Part shown: one piece after another, positions 1-63,972 of the stretch | Layout of the letters: every line of letters begins with the position of its first letter | Position numbering within the stretch: position 1 is the stretch's first letter | Source: Pseudomonadota bacterium | Lineage (GTDB): Bacteria; SAR324; NAC60-12 | Direction of reading: 5' to 3' | Assembly: GCA_004213175.1 (NCBI GenBank) | Contig: SHAT01000001.1 | Location: 1,720 to 65,719, forward strand | DNA length: 64,000 bases | Translations under genes and position numbers: made by a program | The notes under the pieces: generated by a model | Told to the model about the DNA's origin: nothing | Seen by the model: the letters and a program-made list of their open reading frames with translations, nothing else | Database searches by the model: none

Positions 1-571
1 GGGTATATTCAATTTCATAAAGTAAAGAAAAAACTCCGAGTCTCCTTGAGACGCATTCTGGATCAAAAACAAAATATACTGAACTGACCAATTCTGCTAA
101 ACGGTCTATCCAACCCACCCCGATGAGTTTACCCGCTGAATAATAGCGAAGGATTTCTGTAGTAACAGGAGATTCAATTAAAAATTCATAATACTCTATT
201 TCACTAATGGGGGACTCAACATTATGCCAATCTTTTTGATATCGCTGATAAAGCTCAAAATCCTGCAGGTTGAATTCTGACGGATGATGCTCGACCCTCA
301 CATCCTCGTTTTTACGCCATGTACGGCGCTGACTTTTTTTTTGTGAAAAATTTTGTACATCAACACGAATCGGAATACACGATTTACAGCCTACACAAAC
401 TGGATGATAAATGGACAGGCCGCTGCGGCGAAAACCCTGATTAAGTAAAGATGTGTAACCATCCGGAGGAAGTTCACTTGTCTGGAAAGAAAGATTGTGC
501 CATGTCTTGTCATTCAGATATGGGCAAGCCCCATTATCTGTCTGATAAAGCTTTACCTGGATTCTACTCAT
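1..571 (-). CDS. bpt: Arginyl/leucyl-tRNA--protein transferase (ATE/Bpt family), N-terminal part; the gene runs off the 5' window edge
   Basis: Reverse-strand translation from the ATG at 569-571 gives MSRIQVKLYQTDNGACPYLNDKTW...GFRRSGLSIYHPVCVGCKSCIPIRVDV. These are the conserved Bpt/ATE N-terminal motifs (CPYL, GFRRSG, C..C.SC.PIR). The frame stays open to position 1. It is absent from the ORF table because the window truncates it. Confidence 0.7.
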   Translation of the reverse strand, partial: MSRIQVKLYQTDNGACPYLNDKTWHNLSFQTSELPPDGYTSLLNQGFRRSGLSIYHPVCVGCKSCIPIRVDVQNFSQKKSQRRTWRKNEDVRVEHHPSEFNLQDFELYQRYQKDWHNVESPISEIEYYEFLIESPVTTEILRYYSAGKLIGVGWIDRLAELVSSVYFVFDPECVSRRLGVFSLLYEIEYT

Positions 572-621
572 TTTCAATGATCTGGGAAGGGGATGAAATG
601 AAAAGACTTAAAGATATCAAA

Positions 622-1602
622 TTAGGACAAACCGGTTGCAATAACAGTCATTGTAACTTCATCACTCGCAGAGTCGGAAAAGGTTGCCCCCCAAATTAAT
701 TCAACGTCTTCGTCAGCCATATCTTCTATGAGTGACATAGCTTCCTGAATTTCAAAAGCACTTGTGTCTTTTGGTCCACTCACATGTACTAAAATTCCCT
801 TTGCACCACGTATGTCTGTATCCTCCATAAGAGAACCATGTAAAGCGTCTTCCACAGCATTAATTGCCCTGTCCTTACCTTTTGCCAGACCACGCCCTAT
901 GACAGCTTTACCCATACCCTTCATGATGGTCTGTACATCTGCAAAATCGACATTGATGTCACCGACTCCGCTAAGGAGCATTGTAATTCCCCTAATGGCA
1001 TTGATCAGCACCATATCAACCATATGAAAAGCCTCAAGGAAACTCGTGTTCTGCGTGCTGGCATCAAGCAGTTTGTCGTTTGGAATTACGAGCAATGTAT
1101 CAGTAAATTCACGTAAACGCTCTACACCAGCTAGTCCTGAGTCCCTTCGTTTAGTTCCTTCAAATGAAAAAGGAATCGTGACTATCCCAACTGTAAGAAT
1201 TTGCTTTTCCATTGCCATTCGTGCAATAGTCGGAGCAGCACCTGTTCCGGTACCTCCGCCCATTCCGGCAGCAATGAAAACCATATTCGAACCTTCAATT
1301 GCTTCATTAATTTCTGCAAGACTTTCTTCTGCTGCACCTTCACCGACTTCTGGACGTGCTCCCGCTCCCATACCGCGTGTCAATTTTTTTCCTAGTTCAA
1401 TCTTTTTATGTGATTTGTTACGCTTTAACGCTTTAAGATCGGTGTTACAGATTATAGTCTCAACCTGGTCAAAATTTTCTTCCGCCATTTGTGTAACCAC
1501 ATTGCCTCCGGCCCCACCTACACCGATAATTTTTATATTTGGAATAAATCCATCCTGGATAGGATGAAATTGTGCGGTTTGTTTTTCTGCCATGTATTTC
1601 AA
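622..1602 (-). CDS. ftsZ: FtsZ-family tubulin-like GTPase, 326 aa, core only: no C-terminal linker or conserved tail peptide
   Basis: Tubulin signature AAGMGGGTGTGAAP. Also LTVGIVTIPFSFEG, IPNDKLL, NVDFADV and TVIATG. The protein is colinear with the E. coli FtsZ core. The N-terminal glycine loop reads GVGGAGGNVV rather than the usual GVGGGGxNA. The ORF stops right after ...VIATGLS. Confidence 0.8.
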   Translation of the reverse strand: MKYMAEKQTAQFHPIQDGFIPNIKIIGVGGAGGNVVTQMAEENFDQVETIICNTDLKALKRNKSHKKIELGKKLTRGMGAGARPEVGEGAAEESLAEINEAIEGSNMVFIAAGMGGGTGTGAAPTIARMAMEKQILTVGIVTIPFSFEGTKRRDSGLAGVERLREFTDTLLVIPNDKLLDASTQNTSFLEAFHMVDMVLINAIRGITMLLSGVGDINVDFADVQTIMKGMGKAVIGRGLAKGKDRAINAVEDALHGSLMEDTDIRGAKGILVHVSGPKDTSAFEIQEAMSLIEDMADEDVELIWGATFSDSASDEVTMTVIATGLS

Positions 1603-2247
1603 CTCAAAAGAAATTAGGGAACATATTTGTTTCGAAAATAAATACTAAAGTATATATTTTCCCACAGTTTGTTACTGATCAATGTAGTGATTCCTGTCGA
1701 CCTGATGTTTTTAGTATTTTTTTTAAAATGAAGAAACATAAAATATGCAAAAAACTTAAATAATATGCTTTGCACTAGGTGAATCCACAATCTTTTGAAT
1801 ACCTAGCCTCAGTTTAATTGACGTCACATCGTAAAGCAAAGAAGATCCTCATTTTCAAAAAACTAAATTTTTCTGCCCCAGAAGTTTTTTTAAAACAAAT
1901 TGTCTTAATTAGATTGACTAATCCTTGTGCTACTTTGTAAATTATGATAAAGATGTATTATTGAATTTGCAAACCAAAGAATTTTTGAAGGCTAAAAACC
2001 GAATACAATCACATTAACCAAGGTCCTATTATGATTTCTGAGCAGATTTTTTATCTCTTCCTATTTCCCTGGATCATTTTCATTGCTACTATACCAGGCT
2101 CTGTTATAACTTATCTTTTCGCCGGTCTTGGAGCACAAATTTGTAATTATATCCCAGAGAAAACCGAAACTGATAAACAAAATTGAATCTCCAGCAATCA
2201 GTTTGTCCTGCATATATTTCATCTTTTTACGTTAAGACAGAGGAAAA

Positions 2248-2643
2248 TTGAACCCGTACAGTGCAATGATTACCGATTTCCTCCATAAATTTGGAGATGC
2301 GGGGAAAAAGTTCGTCAGTGAAAAAGAATGGTGGATTGTGAGCGGCTCTGTTAAGGTTCAGATCTTCCTTACAAACCTAGAAGACAATGCCGAATTGGTC
2401 GTTGCGGCAAATCTATTTCAGTATCCTAAGCATAATGCTGAAGTTAACACCTATGTACTTAAACTTAACGGAACTTTAAAGTTAAAAGGAGTGAGCTTTG
2501 GCATACGAAACAATAACCTGATCTTAAGTTATATCCGCCCGGTAAAAGGACTCGATCCTGAGGAATTGGAATGGATAATTGCAAGTATCGCTGTAATTGC
2601 AGACGAATATGATGATTTCCTTATAGAAAAATTTGATCTTTAA
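2248..2643 (+). CDS. Small cytoplasmic protein, possibly YbjN-like (type III secretion chaperone-like fold)
   Basis: 131-aa ORF with alternating hydrophobic pattern and an acidic C-terminus (EYDDFLIEKFDL) resembling YbjN-family proteins. Weak assignment from pattern only. Confidence 0.3.
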   Translation: MNPYSAMITDFLHKFGDAGKKFVSEKEWWIVSGSVKVQIFLTNLEDNAELVVAANLFQYPKHNAEVNTYVLKLNGTLKLKGVSFGIRNNNLILSYIRPVKGLDPEELEWIIASIAVIADEYDDFLIEKFDL

Positions 2644-8788: not shown

Positions 8789-11700
8789 TCAAAAATTCTG
8801 GAGATATATTTCTCTGATATTTTTAGTAACTTTTTCCAAAGTTTCCTTTAAATCATATACTTCGTAACCATGATGCTTTAAAAGTTTAAGAATCGTTTCA
8901 GTTTTGACCTTTTTAAAATCCAATAAATCTGTTGAATCATCATAGATCAGTCGTAGTGCATTTTCAATCAATCTCAACAGTTTGTAGTTGTATCGTAAAG
9001 TCTGGGCATCTTCTTTGTTAAGTAAATTCAATTCACCAAGTTCCTGCAGTGCATCCAGAGTTTTTGGACGACGTAATTGAGGATAATTACGTCCATACTT
9101 AAGCTGTAATGCCTGTGTAAGATATTCAATATCCAACAAGCCACCCCTGCCTTCTTTGATGTTTTTTCGATTTTCATTTTCGCCTGAGAGTTCCTGTTCT
9201 TTACGTAACCTGAAATAATTAATTTGCGCGTTCATATCTTTCGGCGGAATCCATTCATAAACCGCACTACGTATTCCTTCCTCTACTTCTTTAAACCATT
9301 TTGCCTCACCTCGACCACCAATGACCCTACCCTTGATCAAGGCTTGATGTTCCCATGGTTTTGAGTTCCCGTGATATTTTAAATATACGTCTAAAGGTGT
9401 CACCAACACACCAGCATTTCCAGAAGGACGCAAACGAGCATCAAGTTTATATGCATATCCTGTACGTGTCATTGTAGATAGACATGATATGAGGCGCTGG
9501 ATCAGCTTGATCCAGTATTCCTGAGCTCCGAGAACATCTTCTCCGTCTGTGGATCCATCACCGGAATGTATGAAAATTAAATCCAAGTCCGAAAAATAGG
9601 TCAACTCACTCCCACCCAGTTTCCCCAAACCAATGATCGCAAACTGCCCTAATTCTCCATGTTTATTTTTAACATCCCCGTAACGTTGGTTTAACCATTT
9701 CTCCGATAATTTAAATGCGGCCTGCACAATAACTTCCGCGAGTACAGTAAGTCCATATCTTGTCTTTTCGTAAGAGATGACACCTTCCATTTCAGCACTA
9801 CCCAGCAGAAATGTAATTGTATGTTTGAACTGTCTAAGCTGATCTATTTCATCTTCTTCGTTATTGGCACAGCAAAGCAGTTTTTCTTCTAGTTGTGCAG
9901 ACCAACTTTCCGCTGAAATTTCCAGTGCTGAATTGTCCAGTTGATCCAATAAATCCAAATGATTGAGCAGATAATTCCACAACATTTCGCTAGTCTCAGC
10001 AATACGCATCAAGCGTGATATTGAAGAAGGATGTTTGGACAATATTCGATAATAACCAACTTTATTGTTCACGGATTCAAACAGCAGCTGAAATTTATTT
10101 TTTGTACTCTCAGTCATCAGGGGGGAAAGATATTGCGAGAACATTTCTATAAACTGCTTTTCCTCTAAGGTGAGATTTTTTATCCTTGCGCAGTTAAGGA
10201 TTGCCGCTTCAATTTCCAAGTGTTTACGACTAAACAATCCACTAAATACTGCACGCACACTCCCCATCACATCTTTCAAATCACTCAAAAAATGCTGACG
10301 TGCTTTTTCTACATCAAACTCAAGATAAGCTAAATTTCTTGCAATCTGCTGTTGCTGTTCAATATCTGAAGGTAGTGTGTGTGTTTGTTGTTCCTCACGT
10401 AACTGAAGATGATGTTCTACTCTTCTTAAAAATAAATATGCATCTGACAAAGTATCTGCATCTCTCTTCGGGATCAATTCTACTTTCTGTAATTTTTCCA
10501 AAATATCCAAGGTCCCAGGACATCGCAGCTCAGGGTTTACACCGCCGTATAAAAGTTGAAATGTTTGCACAAAAAACTCAATCTCACGAATCCCTCCAAC
10601 ACCTAATTTTACATTTAAAAAGCTTTCCCTTAAATGTTCCTGTTCAATACGCTTTTTTACTTTTTGCACGTCATGTAGCACTGCTTCATCCAACAAACTT
10701 CGGAAAACAAAAGGTGTTATCATGCTCATAAAATCTATTCCTGACTGAAATGTCCCTGCAACCGGGACTGCTTTTATTAGGGCTTGACGTTCCCATACCT
10801 CACCACTTGCTGAATAATATAATTCCATTTCATCCAATGACTGAACAAGTGGTGCTCGATCTCCTCCAGGTCGCAAACGCATGTCCATACGTGCCAGAAA
10901 TCCATCTTCTGTAACATCAGCCATTACATCAATCAATATTTTTGCGGATTTTATCCTGAGTTTAGAATCTTGCTTTGGATCTCCAGTAAGGGCTTCGTTA
11001 TCATGAATGAAAATTAAATCCACATCAGATGAATAATTTAATTCATTACCACCTAATTTTCCCATTCCTAATATCATAAAAGGAAAAACTTCTAAAGACT
11101 CTGAATCTTGAATTTGTTTTGAATCAACAACAAAAGATCCATTTTCATCAGGATTAATATGGTTTGGTAAAATATTATTTATGCCAAGTTCGTATTTAGT
11201 TATTCTCGAAAGAGCTGCACGTAAAGTGCAAATTGCTATCGAGGAAAGTTCTTCGAGTGTCTCCTTGAAAGTGCAAAGTTCAGCAAGGTCACGCACAGTT
11301 ATGCGCAGATATTCTTGATATTTGTATCGCCGTAAAATATTCTTAAATTCCATCAGGGATAACCCAGGTTTAGCCTCTATCCTTTTCAGGATTTCAGATT
11401 CCATCACTTCCAAACTTTTTTTCTGTAAAAGGAAAGGAGAGTTCAGTAATTTATCTGCAAGGTCCGGATTCCTTTTTAACCGAATTGCCAGAAAATTACT
11501 GCGTCCGAAAATATACAAGAATGCAGTAGTGTTAGGACGGTCCCAACTAAAATAGCTCCCTGAAGCTTTCTGGAATGCTTCCGTAAAATCAAGCAACTGT
11601 TTCAGAGCTGTTTCTGGAGCTCCGCAAGACAGCAGTACAGGTAAAAACTTTGCCAAATGTTCTGGAATACCTTTAACAGCAACTAACTGATCCAGTAAAT

Positions 11701-18060: not shown

Positions 18061-21000
18061 ATGACCATAAGTTCCAGCAGATCCGGCCTTTCCCAACTTG
18101 AGAAACAACTGGAGTTACTGACTGCATTTAATCTACAGGTACCTTGTAACCCTCAAGGAGATTTTGCAAAAGCCGGATTTAAAAAATTACTGCAATCCCT
18201 CAAAACAACCAAAATCAGCGATTCCATTCGTGCTTCCTACAACGCAGAACATCTTAAAAAATGGAAAGAGTATGCTCAAAGTGAATTTAATGAAATGGGA
18301 CGAATAAACCGCTTAAGACTAGAAAGTTTGATGCTACTTTCAGATGAAGAAATGATTAAAACCATGTTTGAAGGTCTGCTCATTTTTGATATCAATCCTG
18401 AAGATTCACGGCAGTTGGAAGTACATGAAAAGACAGGTAAGTATAATGATGATGGAAAACCCGTAACACGCAATATCGCATTTGACGTTTTTAAAAAAGA
18501 TGCAATTCACGGAATAGAAGGAATCGAGAGATTCTTACCATCACCTGCAATCAAGGGTGAGGCAGGTATGGATGCTCATCTGGAGCATGAATTTTCTGGC
18601 ACAGACCTCGTCAGTCATTTTAAAAAAGATTCCGCAAAGATGATTAAAGCCCTCACAACCATTGGAAGTCTTGGCGGAATAGGACACAAGCCCGATTCAG
18701 ACATGGATGCGCAGGTAATTATAAATACAAACCCGGAATTTCAATTTAGCTGGAATGATGCGGATTTTCTGGTGGCATTGATTGCAAATGTTTTAGAGTC
18801 TTTTTATGATCAGTACTTTCGCTATTCTCTGACTGCAAAAGAACGTATCGAAATAAATAAAACTGCGATAGCTACTTTAAAAGAAAAATGCAGTGAAGGA
18901 ATCAGCGAAGAAGAATTGCGTGTGATTGACTCTATCTTTGCAAGCAGTTACCGCAGAGAATTGAGAAAATTAATTCAAGCACATGTGCAAAAGCGTCCTG
19001 CAGAAGAGCAAAGAAGATTTTTCCTAAAGGCAGTCATCACGACTTTAAACTCTTTTCCAGATTGTGAGGATTTGCTATCACCGCTTAATAATTTTTTCCC
19101 ATTCATAAAAAACACTGGTGGGGACCTTGAACGAAAAGGTTTCCCCTTTTCGTTCAAGCAATTTAAAAAAGAAAAAGTTCTAAAGTGGTTAATTCAGTAT
19201 TATCGTCATACTTTTCTCGATGATGCAGGTGCCCGTCAAGTTTTATGGCGCTATGCAGTCAGCAACAACATGACACCGGATTCCGTCCCTGAGGAAAAAC
19301 AAAACGCTTGTTTTTTGAACAGTTTGACTAATAACTCTCAGTTATCATTACTGCTGAAGGAGTTTTTTGAGTTCCTATCCAGCAAGGTGGCTTTTTCAAC
19401 ACGTAAAAATGTGGCAGAAGCAATAAAATCATTAAAAGAGCACTTCAGAGCAAACAATTTAGAACTTGATGGAAATCTGGAAGAACATATTTCCTCCATG
19501 TTTGAAATCAATTACAGTTCCAGAATCGTTGAGTTGATTGAAGTTTTTTCTGATGGACAAGCCAAAGACGTTGAAGCTCAAATTGAATATCCTTTACATC
19601 TCAAAATTCAGCAAGCAGAAGCTTATCTTACGAAAAAATATCCATCAACAGAAATACATTTTTTCACCAATATTCTACGAAAACAGCGCAACGGACAGCA
19701 TACCCCATTTTTAGTTTCTCCGGAAGGCAGTATGGCTTATGCACTGATGCTTAACGATTTCCTGCTAAATCCTGCTGCCATGATCTGCGGTATAACACCC
19801 ATGCCTTTTGACCTACCTAAGAATTTTAAGGTTCTTTCTTCAATTGGAGTTTTTCCGGATGAGGAGTGGACACTCAAGCAAAATCTTGATGCAGAATATA
19901 AAGTACCATCAAAAACTGCTAAACCGGAAAACGAAGAAGGACAGACAAAAAAGACGTCAGGAGAAAAGATACCTATTCTTGAAGAAGAAACAGAGTCATT
20001 TGTGCTTGGGAAATTACCGAACTGGGGTGAAATTATTATCCCGCGTGAAATGTTTCTGGGGCATGCACTGCCTATTTTTTTACGTGAAAGTGAGAAAATT
20101 AGTCACCGTAATCTTCCCAAAGCATTATTAAACTGCTGGTGGCTGGAAATGATTGTCTGCATTGACAAGGATGATGATCTACCTACAAGTCTGACACGAC
20201 TCTTATGGAATCCGGAAGGCAGAAAATTTATCAGCGAACAACATAAAGGTTCGTTGATTGACGCAATCATTAAAATGGAGGACGATTATCCTCCACTACC
20301 ACTTGATCCGTGGTGGTTGAAATTTACAGAGATGCTGGTACGTTTCGAAAGCTACGAACAGGATGAAGAGGAAGAACCGGATTATGAACTTACTACTCTT
20401 TCTGAAACTCAAAAGAATATTGTTTTTTGCTTTTCTCAGCACATGCGCATTACTGATATTATTAATTTCGGAGATGAAGGAAAAGCATTCTGGCAGGGTG
20501 AAGATGCAAACTGGCGCAGCAGAGCCTTAGTTGATTTTTACAATATTTTCTTTTCTGTTCCTGAGGACCGTCGTGAACTGATTCGCTTTGCTGAGGGACG
20601 TGACGATGCAGGAAACAAAGTGGAAAAAATGCTCAAGAAACTTTTTCTTGAATCGATGACACGAGTAGAGAAGAAACTCTGCAAAATAGGACACACACGT
20701 GCACTGCAACAAATAAGCAACCAACTGGCACGATTGTGCGAGAAAGGTTTTGAAAAAGAAAAAACAGCAAAATTCCTCAGCCCTTTGCTAGACCTTGTTA
20801 ATCAACGTGTTTCCATAGAAGACAGAAAAGTACTGATAAAACTTAAAAAGAAAATCCCGCTCAACAAAATTGAACAAATGCAGGCTAAGATTGTTTATGA
20901 AGAATTACAAAAACTAAAAAGCGTGCAGGGCAACATTGTTGATTATTTTGCTCAGTTTAGGTTAAAAATGGAAGAAAGTTGGGTCCGTAAAACAATCACA

Positions 21001-21924
21001 AACGCCAAAGTGAAAATAGCCGGAAATTCATTGGAAAATGTTATTTTTAAATTTCATTTTGAGCGTAATTTTGAAAGAAAACCTTTTCAGGTTCCTTTGC
21101 CGATTTCAAAGAGTCTGAGTATCCCTCGTTCCAAAATAAAAGTAGAATTTATCCGTAAAACAGCAAAATGGAAATTCAGTTCTGTTCTCAGCCACAGAGA
21201 AGCCGGAAGAGAAAAGAATGCAGAAAATGTGATGCCGATGTTTGAGTCAAATCTGGTAGAAGGTGTTGCGCGCTGCACTTTTAGCGGATATGTAGGTTTT
21301 GGTGGAAAGCATCTTTCAACCTTTGAAAAACCTGCATCACAAGTTCATAGTGACATTGCAATGAACGCCGTTTCAGGTGGTGCACTAGTTATAATAGCAA
21401 AAGAAATAATAAAATTTTTCAAGCCGTTCACAGTTTCATCTCGAGAGTTAATGTCAGACATACATTACGTACGTGACATTCTAATGATCTGTAATGTCAA
21501 TAAGAATGATACTCTTTCGCTAATTGTGCGAGATAATCTGGGTGAGCAATTTGTGATCAACTTTGATATTCAAAAAATTGACGTAAAGAAAGTTCCTCCA
21601 AAATTAAGAATAGGCGGCGACTCTGTCGTTGCAGAATTCTTTATGAGACTCAACAGCCAGCAGTGCCGACTTTTATTCATGAAAAATTTGTCAGCCTTAA
21701 AAATTCCTCTACGTACTTCATTTCAACCTCGTCTGCATATTTGGGTCAATGGAGCAAATTACAACCTACCAGTAACACCAAAATTTCAGCAGAATTACCT
21801 TAACGGAATTGCAAATACTCTCTGGCCTCATAACTCGATTGGAACACGTGAGCATTTAAAACCTGTTAATTTAAGCAGGACATTTGATGAAATTGGCAAA
21901 GAATCTATGCACGGGACTGAATAA
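18061..21924 (+). CDS. Class I (CyaA-type) adenylate cyclase homologue with large N- and C-terminal extensions
   Basis: 1287 aa. Around residue 205 there is a Pol-beta-type NTase motif, TTIGSLGGIGHKPDSDMDAQVII (E. coli CyaA has GSTSSVGQSCSSDLDIWV). Also VLESFYDQYFRYSLTAK (E. coli LLDEFYRTAVRLAGK), FFLKAVITTLNSFP, and VFCFSQHMR (E. coli VFCYSQHLR). The E. coli strings are recalled from memory, not retrieved. Confidence 0.6.
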   Translation: MTISSSRSGLSQLEKQLELLTAFNLQVPCNPQGDFAKAGFKKLLQSLKTTKISDSIRASYNAEHLKKWKEYAQSEFNEMGRINRLRLESLMLLSDEEMIKTMFEGLLIFDINPEDSRQLEVHEKTGKYNDDGKPVTRNIAFDVFKKDAIHGIEGIERFLPSPAIKGEAGMDAHLEHEFSGTDLVSHFKKDSAKMIKALTTIGSLGGIGHKPDSDMDAQVIINTNPEFQFSWNDADFLVALIANVLESFYDQYFRYSLTAKERIEINKTAIATLKEKCSEGISEEELRVIDSIFASSYRRELRKLIQAHVQKRPAEEQRRFFLKAVITTLNSFPDCEDLLSPLNNFFPFIKNTGGDLERKGFPFSFKQFKKEKVLKWLIQYYRHTFLDDAGARQVLWRYAVSNNMTPDSVPEEKQNACFLNSLTNNSQLSLLLKEFFEFLSSKVAFSTRKNVAEAIKSLKEHFRANNLELDGNLEEHISSMFEINYSSRIVELIEVFSDGQAKDVEAQIEYPLHLKIQQAEAYLTKKYPSTEIHFFTNILRKQRNGQHTPFLVSPEGSMAYALMLNDFLLNPAAMICGITPMPFDLPKNFKVLSSIGVFPDEEWTLKQNLDAEYKVPSKTAKPENEEGQTKKTSGEKIPILEEETESFVLGKLPNWGEIIIPREMFLGHALPIFLRESEKISHRNLPKALLNCWWLEMIVCIDKDDDLPTSLTRLLWNPEGRKFISEQHKGSLIDAIIKMEDDYPPLPLDPWWLKFTEMLVRFESYEQDEEEEPDYELTTLSETQKNIVFCFSQHMRITDIINFGDEGKAFWQGEDANWRSRALVDFYNIFFSVPEDRRELIRFAEGRDDAGNKVEKMLKKLFLESMTRVEKKLCKIGHTRALQQISNQLARLCEKGFEKEKTAKFLSPLLDLVNQRVSIEDRKVLIKLKKKIPLNKIEQMQAKIVYEELQKLKSVQGNIVDYFAQFRLKMEESWVRKTITNAKVKIAGNSLENVIFKFHFERNFERKPFQVPLPISKSLSIPRSKIKVEFIRKTAKWKFSSVLSHREAGREKNAENVMPMFESNLVEGVARCTFSGYVGFGGKHLSTFEKPASQVHSDIAMNAVSGGALVIIAKEIIKFFKPFTVSSRELMSDIHYVRDILMICNVNKNDTLSLIVRDNLGEQFVINFDIQKIDVKKVPPKLRIGGDSVVAEFFMRLNSQQCRLLFMKNLSALKIPLRTSFQPRLHIWVNGANYNLPVTPKFQQNYLNGIANTLWPHNSIGTREHLKPVNLSRTFDEIGKESMHGTE

Positions 21925-22052: not shown

Positions 22053-23303
22053 ATGGCAGACAAAGAACCAAAAGAAAATCAAAAAACTCCGAATGTTAAT
22101 TTCATCAGTTTTCAAAAGCAGCTGCGTGGAATAGTTAAAGACGTTAAAGAGCATAATAAAAAAACAGGGCTAAAAAAAATTTTTGGTAGCAAAACTGAAA
22201 ATTTGCATGTCAACGGAAGTATTTTGCAAAAAGATATTCCAGACAATAAAGAAATTTCAAAGTATGTTAAACAGTTAGATAAAGAACCAAACAATGTCGA
22301 ATCACGTTTAATGTTGGTAAATACCGTATTGAATGCCAGAAAAGATCATTCATTGAGTACCCATCTGAACTTGATGCTGCAAGCTGCATTACCAGTTTAT
22401 CTAGGTGACATCACCCCAACAATTATACAGATTGTTGTGCATACCTACCGTTCTTATTTAGAATGCCTCGGCAATATTCACAAACAAAACATGATGGCCA
22501 TTAAATCAACTGCTCTGAAAAATGTGAATATGAAGGGGATTGATGTCAATGATGAAAAGACTGAAGATACCCATGTGAAAGACTCAGAGTCGATAAAAAC
22601 TGAAATTAAAATTGCAGAATCACTGATTGAAAATTGTGATTCTGTGATTCAAAGTGTAAAAACAAAAATGACTGCCACCCTTTCACATGAAGAAATTGAA
22701 GAGCTTACCGCTGAAGGTAAAGCATCCAGTTCTATGTTTGGCGGCAGCGAAGAAAAAGTGAATCCGAACAAACAAAATCTGATTATTGGTAAAGCCGTAC
22801 AGGCAATTGAAATATTGAAACAAATCCCATTGCTACAGGGTGCAGGGCTAGATCTGGCAAAACAACTAGGTCGCATTGACTCAAAGCTAACTTATCCACT
22901 AGTGATGGAGGGGCGTATTCAAATGCAGGCATTAAAATATCAATTGCTGAGGATAGAAAGTGGTGATCGTATTGCACGGGATAACATGGCTCCTGTATAC
23001 AATCTTGCATTAGTGGCTTACCGAAAAGCTTTGAAACTTACTTCAAAATCTACTCCTAAAAAAGCAGACCTACCAGTATTGACAGAGTTCGGAAATATGA
23101 CTCATTATGGTTATATACACCGTGATCTAATGCGCTTTACCGAAGAAGGTGTAAAAACTTTGGTCAAGCTAGGGAAAGATTCTGTTGATGCAGCAGTAAC
23201 CGTAGATGAAAGTTTTGTCCCACTACAAAAACGTCTAGAGAGTTCAATGACTCAGCTCTTCCAAAATGAGACACAAGCAAATAGTAAAGTCAGATTCAAC
23301 TGA
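22053..23303 (+). CDS. Hypothetical protein, 416 aa, predicted mostly helical, no recognisable motif
   Basis: Long ORF in clean coding context 128 bp downstream of the cyclase-like gene, same strand. Lys/Glu-rich. Confidence 0.5.
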   Translation: MADKEPKENQKTPNVNFISFQKQLRGIVKDVKEHNKKTGLKKIFGSKTENLHVNGSILQKDIPDNKEISKYVKQLDKEPNNVESRLMLVNTVLNARKDHSLSTHLNLMLQAALPVYLGDITPTIIQIVVHTYRSYLECLGNIHKQNMMAIKSTALKNVNMKGIDVNDEKTEDTHVKDSESIKTEIKIAESLIENCDSVIQSVKTKMTATLSHEEIEELTAEGKASSSMFGGSEEKVNPNKQNLIIGKAVQAIEILKQIPLLQGAGLDLAKQLGRIDSKLTYPLVMEGRIQMQALKYQLLRIESGDRIARDNMAPVYNLALVAYRKALKLTSKSTPKKADLPVLTEFGNMTHYGYIHRDLMRFTEEGVKTLVKLGKDSVDAAVTVDESFVPLQKRLESSMTQLFQNETQANSKVRFN

Positions 23304-62982: not shown

Positions 62983-63972
62983 ATGGACATTATTTCAGCA
63001 GAAGAGCAAAATTCTGAAATGCCAAATCCCGAAGTAGGAGCAGTTGCTGAACAAAAGCCCTCTCTTCCACCGAATGAGGCCTTGAAGCTTGTTTTTGGAG
63101 AATATGCTGCAAATACTCAGCGTGCATACGCGCGCGCTTTCAGGGATTTACAGGAATGGGCAGATATCCGGGAGCTGAGGGAAATGGAGGACTTCGATCC
63201 TCTCTGGATGCTAGAATATAAAAATCAGCTGAAATCCTCAGGCAAAAAAGCTTCGACCATCAACCAAACCATGAGTGCCCTGCGCAAAGTCTGTAAGGTG
63301 CTGACAGAATTTGGCTACCTCAAACAAAATCCTTTCAAAGCTTCTGTCATCCGCGCAGAAAAAATTGACACTGCAACCAGTAAGGGGGCTCTCCAAGTTT
63401 CTCAGCTCAATGCCATGATAGAAGCAAATAAGGTAATGCAATATGATGGACGTATGGCACCCCTGCTCCGGGTTAGGAATGATTTGGTGTTGAAATTTCT
63501 GTATCTCACCGCAGCCCGACGCGGTGAAACCGCTGGTTTATGCTGGAGTGATATTGTACAGGATGGGTCTTTTTATGTAGCAGTACTGAAGCATACGAAA
63601 AGCGGAAAAGAACAGCGGATAAAATTAAGACATGAACTTCATGAAGAACTATCCGAGTGGAACTCATTTCTGCAACAAAATAACATTAATTCCGCGTATG
63701 TTTTTCCATCACTTGGCTTTAGGACTCATGGTCAAAAAATGTCTGGAAAAGGTATTAATGACATTGTTTCCAGACTCGGCAAAGCAATTGGTTTAAATAT
63801 TTCGGCACATTATCTTAGACACACTGCAATCACTCTTTCATTGGAATTGGGCGAACCGTTGCAGAAAGTCCAGTCTTATGCACGACATGCTTCAGCCAAT
63901 ACCACTATCCGTTACTTCCATGACCGACAACTTTTAGAAAAAAACCCTACCGATAGCCTACCCTTGATTTAA
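62983..63972 (+). mobile_element. Tyrosine recombinase / phage-type integrase
   Basis: 329 aa. N-terminal SAM-like core-binding domain. Catalytic C-terminus LRHTAITLSLELG...YARHASANTTIRYFH (R, H-x-x-R, Y). Visibly GC-richer than its surroundings. Confidence 0.8.

Follow-up and report, generated by a model that had tools for sequence, protein, structure and literature searches.

The analysed stretch of DNA, a window of 64 kb, carries close to its left end a gene encoding a tail-less FtsZ paralogue of 323 amino acids, termed ftsZ-S in the following (622..1593, minus strand, stop codon at 622-624). The open reading frame at 622..1602 on the minus strand comprises 326 codons when counted from an in-frame TTG (1594..1602, minus strand), which is the start of the mechanical ORF call (326 aa) and probably not the real one. 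The ATG at position 1593 (MAEKQ...) is almost certainly the start of ftsZ-S, since it is the one used by gene callers, in the orthologues and in the gene product on record. An exact look-up in public assemblies matched the product of 323 amino acids starting at the ATG and returned no match for the 326-aa product starting at the TTG.

Downstream of ftsZ-S and on the same strand lies the 5' part of bpt (1..571, minus strand, first 190 codons), which runs off the window start and is predicted to encode an aminoacyl-tRNA-protein transferase of the ATE family, as indicated by the Pfam domains ATE_N and ATE_C and by the model NF002346 (198.7 bits, above the cut-off of 170). The spacer between the two genes (572..621, minus strand) measures 50 nt and contains no terminator-like site, which is consistent with their co-transcription. 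On the 5' side of ftsZ-S a divergent intergenic region of 437 bp (1594..2030) presumably holds the promoter. A scan for promoters and terminators at the locus detected nothing above chance, promoter-like sites being no commoner than in shuffled sequence, and an Rfam scan of the locus including the divergent region returned no match. Beyond this region the plus strand carries a small hydrophobic ORF of 51 amino acids (2031..2186), divergent from ftsZ-S, and a YbjN/TY-Chap-like gene (2266..2643, 125 aa from its ATG; the ORF list has it start at a TTG at 2248). The initial annotation had named bpt and a YbjN-like gene as the neighbours of ftsZ-S; both are present, bpt downstream in the same orientation and the other gene upstream and divergent, but the YbjN match of the latter is weak (22.7 bits, below the cut-off of 27).

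Elsewhere in the window, two large ORFs without any Pfam match (18061-21924 and 22053-23303, both plus strand, 1287 and 416 aa) come after flgF, flgG, flgA and flgH, at the position expected for the P-ring gene flgI. Near the other end, the protein encoded at 62983-63972 has an exact match in GCA_002704555.1.

In FtsZ-S, the predicted protein, an N-terminal peptide is combined with the GTPase and FtsZ_C domains, and the T7 loop (NVDFADV) is intact. The protein matches the Pfam families Tubulin (PF00091, 1.9e-46, 159 bits) and FtsZ_C (PF12327, 9.3e-25, 87 bits) and scores 354.2 bits with the NCBIfam equivalog model TIGR00065 (ftsZ), the cut-off of which is 295.2. Forty-nine FtsZ sequences of the PDB match FtsZ-S at E <= 1e-20, and the crystallised core of the S. 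aureus FtsZ aligns with residues 17-322 of its 323 residues (E 1.1e-91). The GTP-binding loops, the GGGTGTG signature and the T7 loop are all intact; in an alignment with canonical FtsZs the columns of GMGGGTGTGAAP and INVDFADV are invariant. Since all GTP-binding loops and the catalytic T7 loop are kept, both polymer interfaces of FtsZ-S are intact. The view of the initial annotation that the gene encodes a bona fide FtsZ core was therefore confirmed by the equivalog score, the intact motifs and the PDB core match. Its description as divergent holds to a moderate degree only, the core identity between FtsZ-S and canonical FtsZs amounting to 43-55% as compared to 47-78% among canonical FtsZs themselves. 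The loop GGAGGN, to which attention had been drawn as a deviation from GGGGGN, is present but not diagnostic, because GGAGGN also occurs in fully tailed alphaproteobacterial FtsZs and the loop reads GGGGGN or GGGGCN in further short orthologues from SAR324. FtsZ-S does not belong to the families FtsZl-1 and FtsZl-2, passing the equivalog cut-off and being 43-55% identical to canonical cores; these families comprise highly divergent proteins of the tubulin/FtsZ fold outside bona fide FtsZ (Makarova & Koonin 2010, PMC2875224).

The C-terminus of FtsZ-S (...TVIATGLS) ends one residue past the core, without a linker and without a C-terminal peptide, exactly as had been described initially. Tailed FtsZs aligned with it extend for a further 50-330 residues and finish in a peptide of the DIPAFLRR type. 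Neither FtsZ-S nor any of its approximately 60 orthologues possesses the linker and the peptide (D/E-I/L-P-x-F-L/I-R/K) of a canonical primary FtsZ. We also considered the N-terminal peptide of FtsZ-S as a relocated tether-binding motif and rejected this idea, comparable motifs being found in canonical FtsZs and in the long FtsZ of SAR324 described below.

The short form is no peculiarity of a single assembly. In the public assembly collection, 293 blocks contain the exact product of 323 amino acids, which was observed on 185 contigs, and the approximately 60 orthologues (56-97% identity, 319-338 aa) all end 1-14 residues past the motif ATG(L/I). These homologues, and 16 GTDB species representatives, originate from MAGs and SAGs assigned to the SAR324 cluster, to Candidatus Lambdaproteobacteria or to "Deltaproteobacteria bacterium". 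Compared with the 16 related species, ftsZ-S shows a dN/dS of 0.02-0.05, and topA, clpP and an MBL-fold gene of the same loci have a dN approximately twice as high as that of ftsZ-S. FtsZ-S is thus a strongly conserved tail-less extra FtsZ across the marine SAR324 phylum. A short length resulting from a sequencing or assembly frameshift, or from decay of a normal FtsZ into a pseudogene, has practically no chance of being correct. Metagenome assemblies do yield FtsZ chimeras (P0013, P0061, P0072, P0100) as well as frameshifted copies (L028), but the conservation data, namely the identical product in all those blocks and contigs, the lack of a tail in orthologues down to 56% identity and the low dN/dS, already refute an artefact, and the gap of 50 nt between the stop codon and bpt leaves no space for a lost tail. 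A frameshift as the cause of the truncation, which the initial annotation had named as a possible refutation of its reading, can therefore be dismissed.

Several apparently longer relatives of FtsZ-S had to be discarded. P0013, P0061, P0072 and P0100 were rejected as tailed intermediates since they are assembly chimeras joined at the conserved motifs GGGTGTG or NVDFADV: a short-FtsZ segment of SAR324 is fused to an actinobacterial-like FtsZ in P0013, to SAR11-like FtsZs in P0061 and P0072, and to an unrelated N-terminal segment which is not FtsZ in P0100. Surveys of FtsZ tail length can be misled by such chimeric FtsZ genes in public metagenome assemblies. P0030 and P0059 were likewise rejected as longer orthologues, being N-terminal over-calls. 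On a contig of 606 kb of the MAG FRAM18_bin343 (L028, 9992-10959) ftsZ-S and several of its neighbours are each split into two ORFs, which probably reflects assembly indel errors and not pseudogenes.

The co-oriented pair of ftsZ-S and bpt is nearly universal among the sampled SAR324 lineages. It was found in the window and in L008, L006, L007, L033, L034, L035 and L116, with a spacer that shrinks elsewhere to 8 nt or turns into an overlap of 4 nt (L034), and has been lost only in L001 and L004/L005. In three lineages (L004, L006, L116) clpS is located divergently upstream of ftsZ-S; where bpt and clpS are both present, the tail-less FtsZ is thus flanked by two genes of the N-degron pathway. 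The L006 locus also holds a 439-aa fusion of a response-regulator receiver and LpxC (9-1328, minus strand), which is unusual and was seen here in a SAR324 MAG. The genes upstream of ftsZ-S are not kept in all SAR324 lineages. A hydrophobic ORF of 50-54 amino acids occurs near ftsZ-S in three deep lineages (44-61% identity), a YbjN/TY-Chap-like gene of 125-132 amino acids lies 5' of ftsZ-S also in the L033 lineage (70% identity), and a DEAD-box helicase of the DbpA type is sometimes inserted between these upstream ORFs and ftsZ-S. Outside the window, such upstream ORFs were noted at L033 7442-8032 and L007 7569-7721.

Genes of the dcw cluster were detected neither in the 64-kb window nor within approximately 10 kb past either of its ends, and a search with the E. 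coli FtsA found no match adjacent to the short gene at any of its loci; the same query recovered ftsA upstream of ftsZ in the controls L029 and L030. The statement of the initial annotation that the gene lies outside any division cluster is hence correct for the region covered, but it carries little weight as evidence of an accessory role, because the dcw cluster of SAR324 is itself split, with ftsL-ftsI and ftsA-ftsZ-L as isolated pairs. In lineages resembling that of the window, ftsL-ftsI forms a lone pair between fatty-acid genes and pdxA (L041 9609-11785; L042; L047), and the genes that come after ftsI are pdxA, in opposite orientation, and metabolic genes. The pair of ftsA and the long ftsZ (L117 8625-11818) is preceded by trkA, a MoxR-like gene and purine genes and not by ftsQ or mur genes. 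An attempt to reach ftsA from ftsZ-S by way of ftsL-ftsI failed owing to this fragmentation. In L033 and on a SAR324 contig of 3.47 Mb (L116; ENA ERZ25067581 contig_1), a distance of 1.2-5.3 kb separates ftsZ-S-bpt from a downstream, co-oriented ftsL-ftsI pair, which in L116 occupies 9580-11689.

A second, full-length FtsZ, for which the initial annotation had recommended to search, does exist in SAR324. Among 1.84 billion protein representatives, the tailed proteins that matched FtsZ-S best were retrieved and their names looked up by cluster. They included proteins named as FtsZ of SAR324 (P0123, 605 aa, MBF0351013.1; P0389, 611 aa) and a cluster (P0127, 556-565 aa) named as FtsZ of Deltaproteobacteria or Candidatus Lambdaproteobacteria. 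A homologue search with P0123 led to more than 100 clusters of marine-metagenome proteins of 648-649 amino acids, several of them named SAR324. This long form, termed FtsZ-L, thus comprises 556-649 amino acids and carries the canonical C-terminal peptide (NLDIPAF/YxRK), its C-termini reading NLDIPAYVRK or NLDIPAFIRRR. The preceding linker (P0123, P0454, P0127) is unusually long, with approximately 230-330 amino acids, acidic and highly variable. Close to the C-terminus of P0123 and P0389 there are apparently two motifs resembling such a peptide, RDIPSFVKN and NLDIPAYVRK. With TIGR00065, FtsZ-L reaches 424-436 bits as compared to 354 for FtsZ-S. In the MAG GCA_015232315.1 (L117) ftsZ-L directly follows ftsA, which was identified by the Pfam families FtsA and SHS2_FTSA and by TIGR01174 (458 bits). 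A scan of viral contigs for the long FtsZ found nothing.

The same MAG also encodes a short FtsZ (P0073, MBF0351870.1), 857 protein accessions after the long one (MBF0351013.1). The long gene is located on contig 8 (158 kb) and the short gene on a contig of 95.7 kb, which fits a single assembly with contigs ordered by size. A second plausible pair of long and short FtsZ is formed by MBF0239258.1 and MBF0236131.1. The tetranucleotide composition of the long-gene locus L117 and of the short-gene locus L034, which belong to sister MAGs, correlates with 0.977, as compared to 0.0-0.3 between unrelated loci. Accession order and composition constitute the evidence for a common MAG, and MAG bins can be contaminated. 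Based on these data and on the named homologues, SAR324 genomes hold both FtsZs: GCA_015232315.1 combines a core-only and a full-length FtsZ, and for the window's own species a long copy is expected from the related MAGs and from the marine family of 648-649 amino acids, which is partly named SAR324. The initial interpretation as an accessory paralogue is thereby supported, directly for SAR324 by the tailed FtsZ-L next to ftsA and by extension for the species of the window. We had earlier favoured a different reading, in which FtsZ-S is the sole FtsZ and has lost its tail, because no tailed close relative was found among the best 120 homologues and the gene is under very strong constraint. It was rejected once the cluster names of the best tailed representatives revealed long FtsZs of SAR324. 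A scan of genome contigs with the short protein had yielded close relatives only, with the same gene order around ftsZ-S.

In a neighbour-joining tree of short, long and other-phyla FtsZs (305 core columns, with bootstrap), a phylogeny of the kind suggested by the initial annotation, the short and the long proteins formed separate clades with 100% bootstrap each, and the two clades appeared as sisters at 40%. The mean identity is 51% between the short and the long proteins (47-55% between FtsZ-S and its partner FtsZ-L), 48% between the short proteins and those of other phyla and 54% between the long proteins and those of other phyla; within the clades it amounts to 66% (short) and 74% (long). 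Both share the N-terminal motif (I/P)xQxxx(I/T)PNIK(I/V)IG. These sequence comparisons suggest that the two forms probably derive from an old duplication within SAR324, in its stem lineage. FtsZ-S is more divergent within its clade than FtsZ-L, an asymmetry expected of an accessory copy and of an old duplication in which the long copy keeps the ancestral role. Alternatively, one of the two copies may have been acquired by an ancient transfer, since the sister relationship is supported by only 40% of the neighbour-joining bootstraps.

Combinations of a tail-less and a tailed FtsZ are known from other systems. In plastids the tail-less FtsZ1 co-assembles with FtsZ2 and raises polymer turnover, and the peptide of FtsZ2 binds the membrane tether. 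As in SAR324, this is an ancient pair kept throughout a lineage, in which one member (FtsZ2, FtsZ-L) carries the C-terminal peptide and the other (FtsZ1, FtsZ-S) retains a competent GTPase core without this peptide. However, FtsZ-S ends with the core while FtsZ1 continues into a variable C-terminal extension, and the plastid pair belongs to a eukaryotic organelle, operates with ARC6 and PARC6 instead of FtsA and arose by an independent duplication. Among bacteria, FtsZ2 of S. meliloti and FtsZ1 of A. tumefaciens are likewise core-only proteins of approximately 320-350 amino acids encoded away from ftsA, alongside a canonical FtsZ with a long linker encoded after ftsA. Such short paralogues of the Rhizobiales are recruited by the main FtsZ; they are lineage-restricted and comparatively recent, and at least some of them are dispensable. 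FtsZ-S differs from these alphaproteobacterial proteins in its phylum-wide distribution, its identity of 47-55% to the partner, its pairing with bpt and an evolutionary rate below that of topA and clpP. Two deeply diverged paralogues kept across a large clade, both under constraint, are also represented by FtsZ1 and FtsZ2 of archaea; in contrast to the SAR324 pair, these belong to a different domain of life, go back to a separate duplication and both keep C-terminal tails which engage SepF or other partners.

The initial annotation had compared the protein with FtsZm of Magnetospirillum. The resemblance holds for the architecture, FtsZm being a tail-less protein of approximately 323 amino acids which occurs alongside a full-length FtsZ, but not for the genomic context. 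FtsZm functions in biomineralisation and its gene is part of the mamXY operon in the magnetosome island, whereas FtsZ-S is found in ordinary pelagic SAR324 and the Pfam annotation of the window and of the related loci (±10 kb) revealed no genes of magnetosome type. Some SAR324 are magnetotactic, as described in a paper that does not mention FtsZ (PMC7602337).

Taking all this together, it appears probable that FtsZ-S is a phylum-wide paralogue originating from an old duplication, which is expressed together with bpt and, by analogy with the systems above, would co-assemble with FtsZ-L. To our knowledge the C-terminal peptide is the only known handle for FtsA, ZipA, SepF, MinC and ClpX. Lacking it, FtsZ-S would presumably be unable to tether itself to the membrane and would most likely join FtsZ-L in mixed protofilaments of the Z-ring. 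There its presence may leave each filament with fewer tails and in this way tune tether density, bundling and turnover. The expression of ftsZ-S would presumably be linked to that of bpt.

The main rival to co-assembly is a filament system of its own, in which FtsZ-S would serve a purpose beyond septation or instead of it, for example in cell shape or membrane remodelling. A partner binding either the globular core or the peptide at the N-terminus would hold it in place; putative candidates are encoded upstream, namely the YbjN-like protein and the conserved small membrane ORF. This would agree with a conservation stronger than that of the housekeeping neighbours. An essential independent role would likewise be compatible with an evolutionary rate below that of topA and clpP. 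It would further agree with the conserved neighbourhood (bpt, the hydrophobic ORF, the YbjN-like gene and, in some lineages, clpS), with the position of ftsZ-S, which is never next to ftsA, and with the precedent of FtsZm as a tail-less FtsZ with a role outside division. Nevertheless, we regard such a system as rather unlikely since its partner is only hypothetical and the upstream genes are not kept in all lineages, ftsZ-S is co-oriented with ftsL-ftsI in two deep lineages, and the motifs of the polymer interfaces are all canonical, which favours mixing with FtsZ-L.

The roles of the two proteins might also be reversed, with FtsZ-S as the main FtsZ for division in SAR324 and FtsZ-L as an accessory or anchoring subunit. 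The very strong purifying selection on ftsZ-S, its proximity to ftsL-ftsI in two lineages and the extremely wide distribution of its exact sequence would be compatible with this scenario, which seems decidedly improbable given that FtsZ-L has the canonical architecture and partner (C-terminal peptide, gene after ftsA), scores higher on the equivalog model (424-436 versus 354 bits), is closer to the FtsZs of other phyla and is less divergent within the phylum. Going beyond co-assembly as we propose it, the two FtsZs of SAR324 might be obligate subunits of one system with an evolutionary origin separate from that of the plastid pair. In it, an essential FtsZ-S would form mixed filaments with the FtsA-tethered FtsZ-L, and the N-degron pathway would set the level of FtsZ-S or of a division factor. 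Such N-degron control would explain why ftsZ-S has been kept with bpt, and in some lineages with clpS, since the origin of the phylum; for the present we consider this extension unlikely.

A tail-less FtsZ accompanying a tailed one is a known kind of arrangement, which for the SAR324 phylum has apparently not yet been described; a literature search found no description of FtsZ, FtsA or the dcw cluster in SAR324. The phylum ranks among the most abundant lineages of bacteria in the dark ocean, and we know of no cultured model for it. Since annotation pipelines label both proteins "cell division protein FtsZ", they should be separated in analyses of SAR324 which rely on copy numbers or on FtsZ as a single marker. 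The pairing of ftsZ-S with bpt hints at a possible tie between components of the Z-ring and proteolysis by the N-degron pathway. If the proposed reading is true, a whole phylum has kept two FtsZs since its origin, a canonical one linked to FtsA and a core without any tail that is more strongly constrained than topoisomerase I. SAR324 would then represent a free-living bacterial counterpart of the plastid FtsZ1/FtsZ2 pair and a natural experiment on the purpose of the FtsZ tail in tether density, bundling and turnover.
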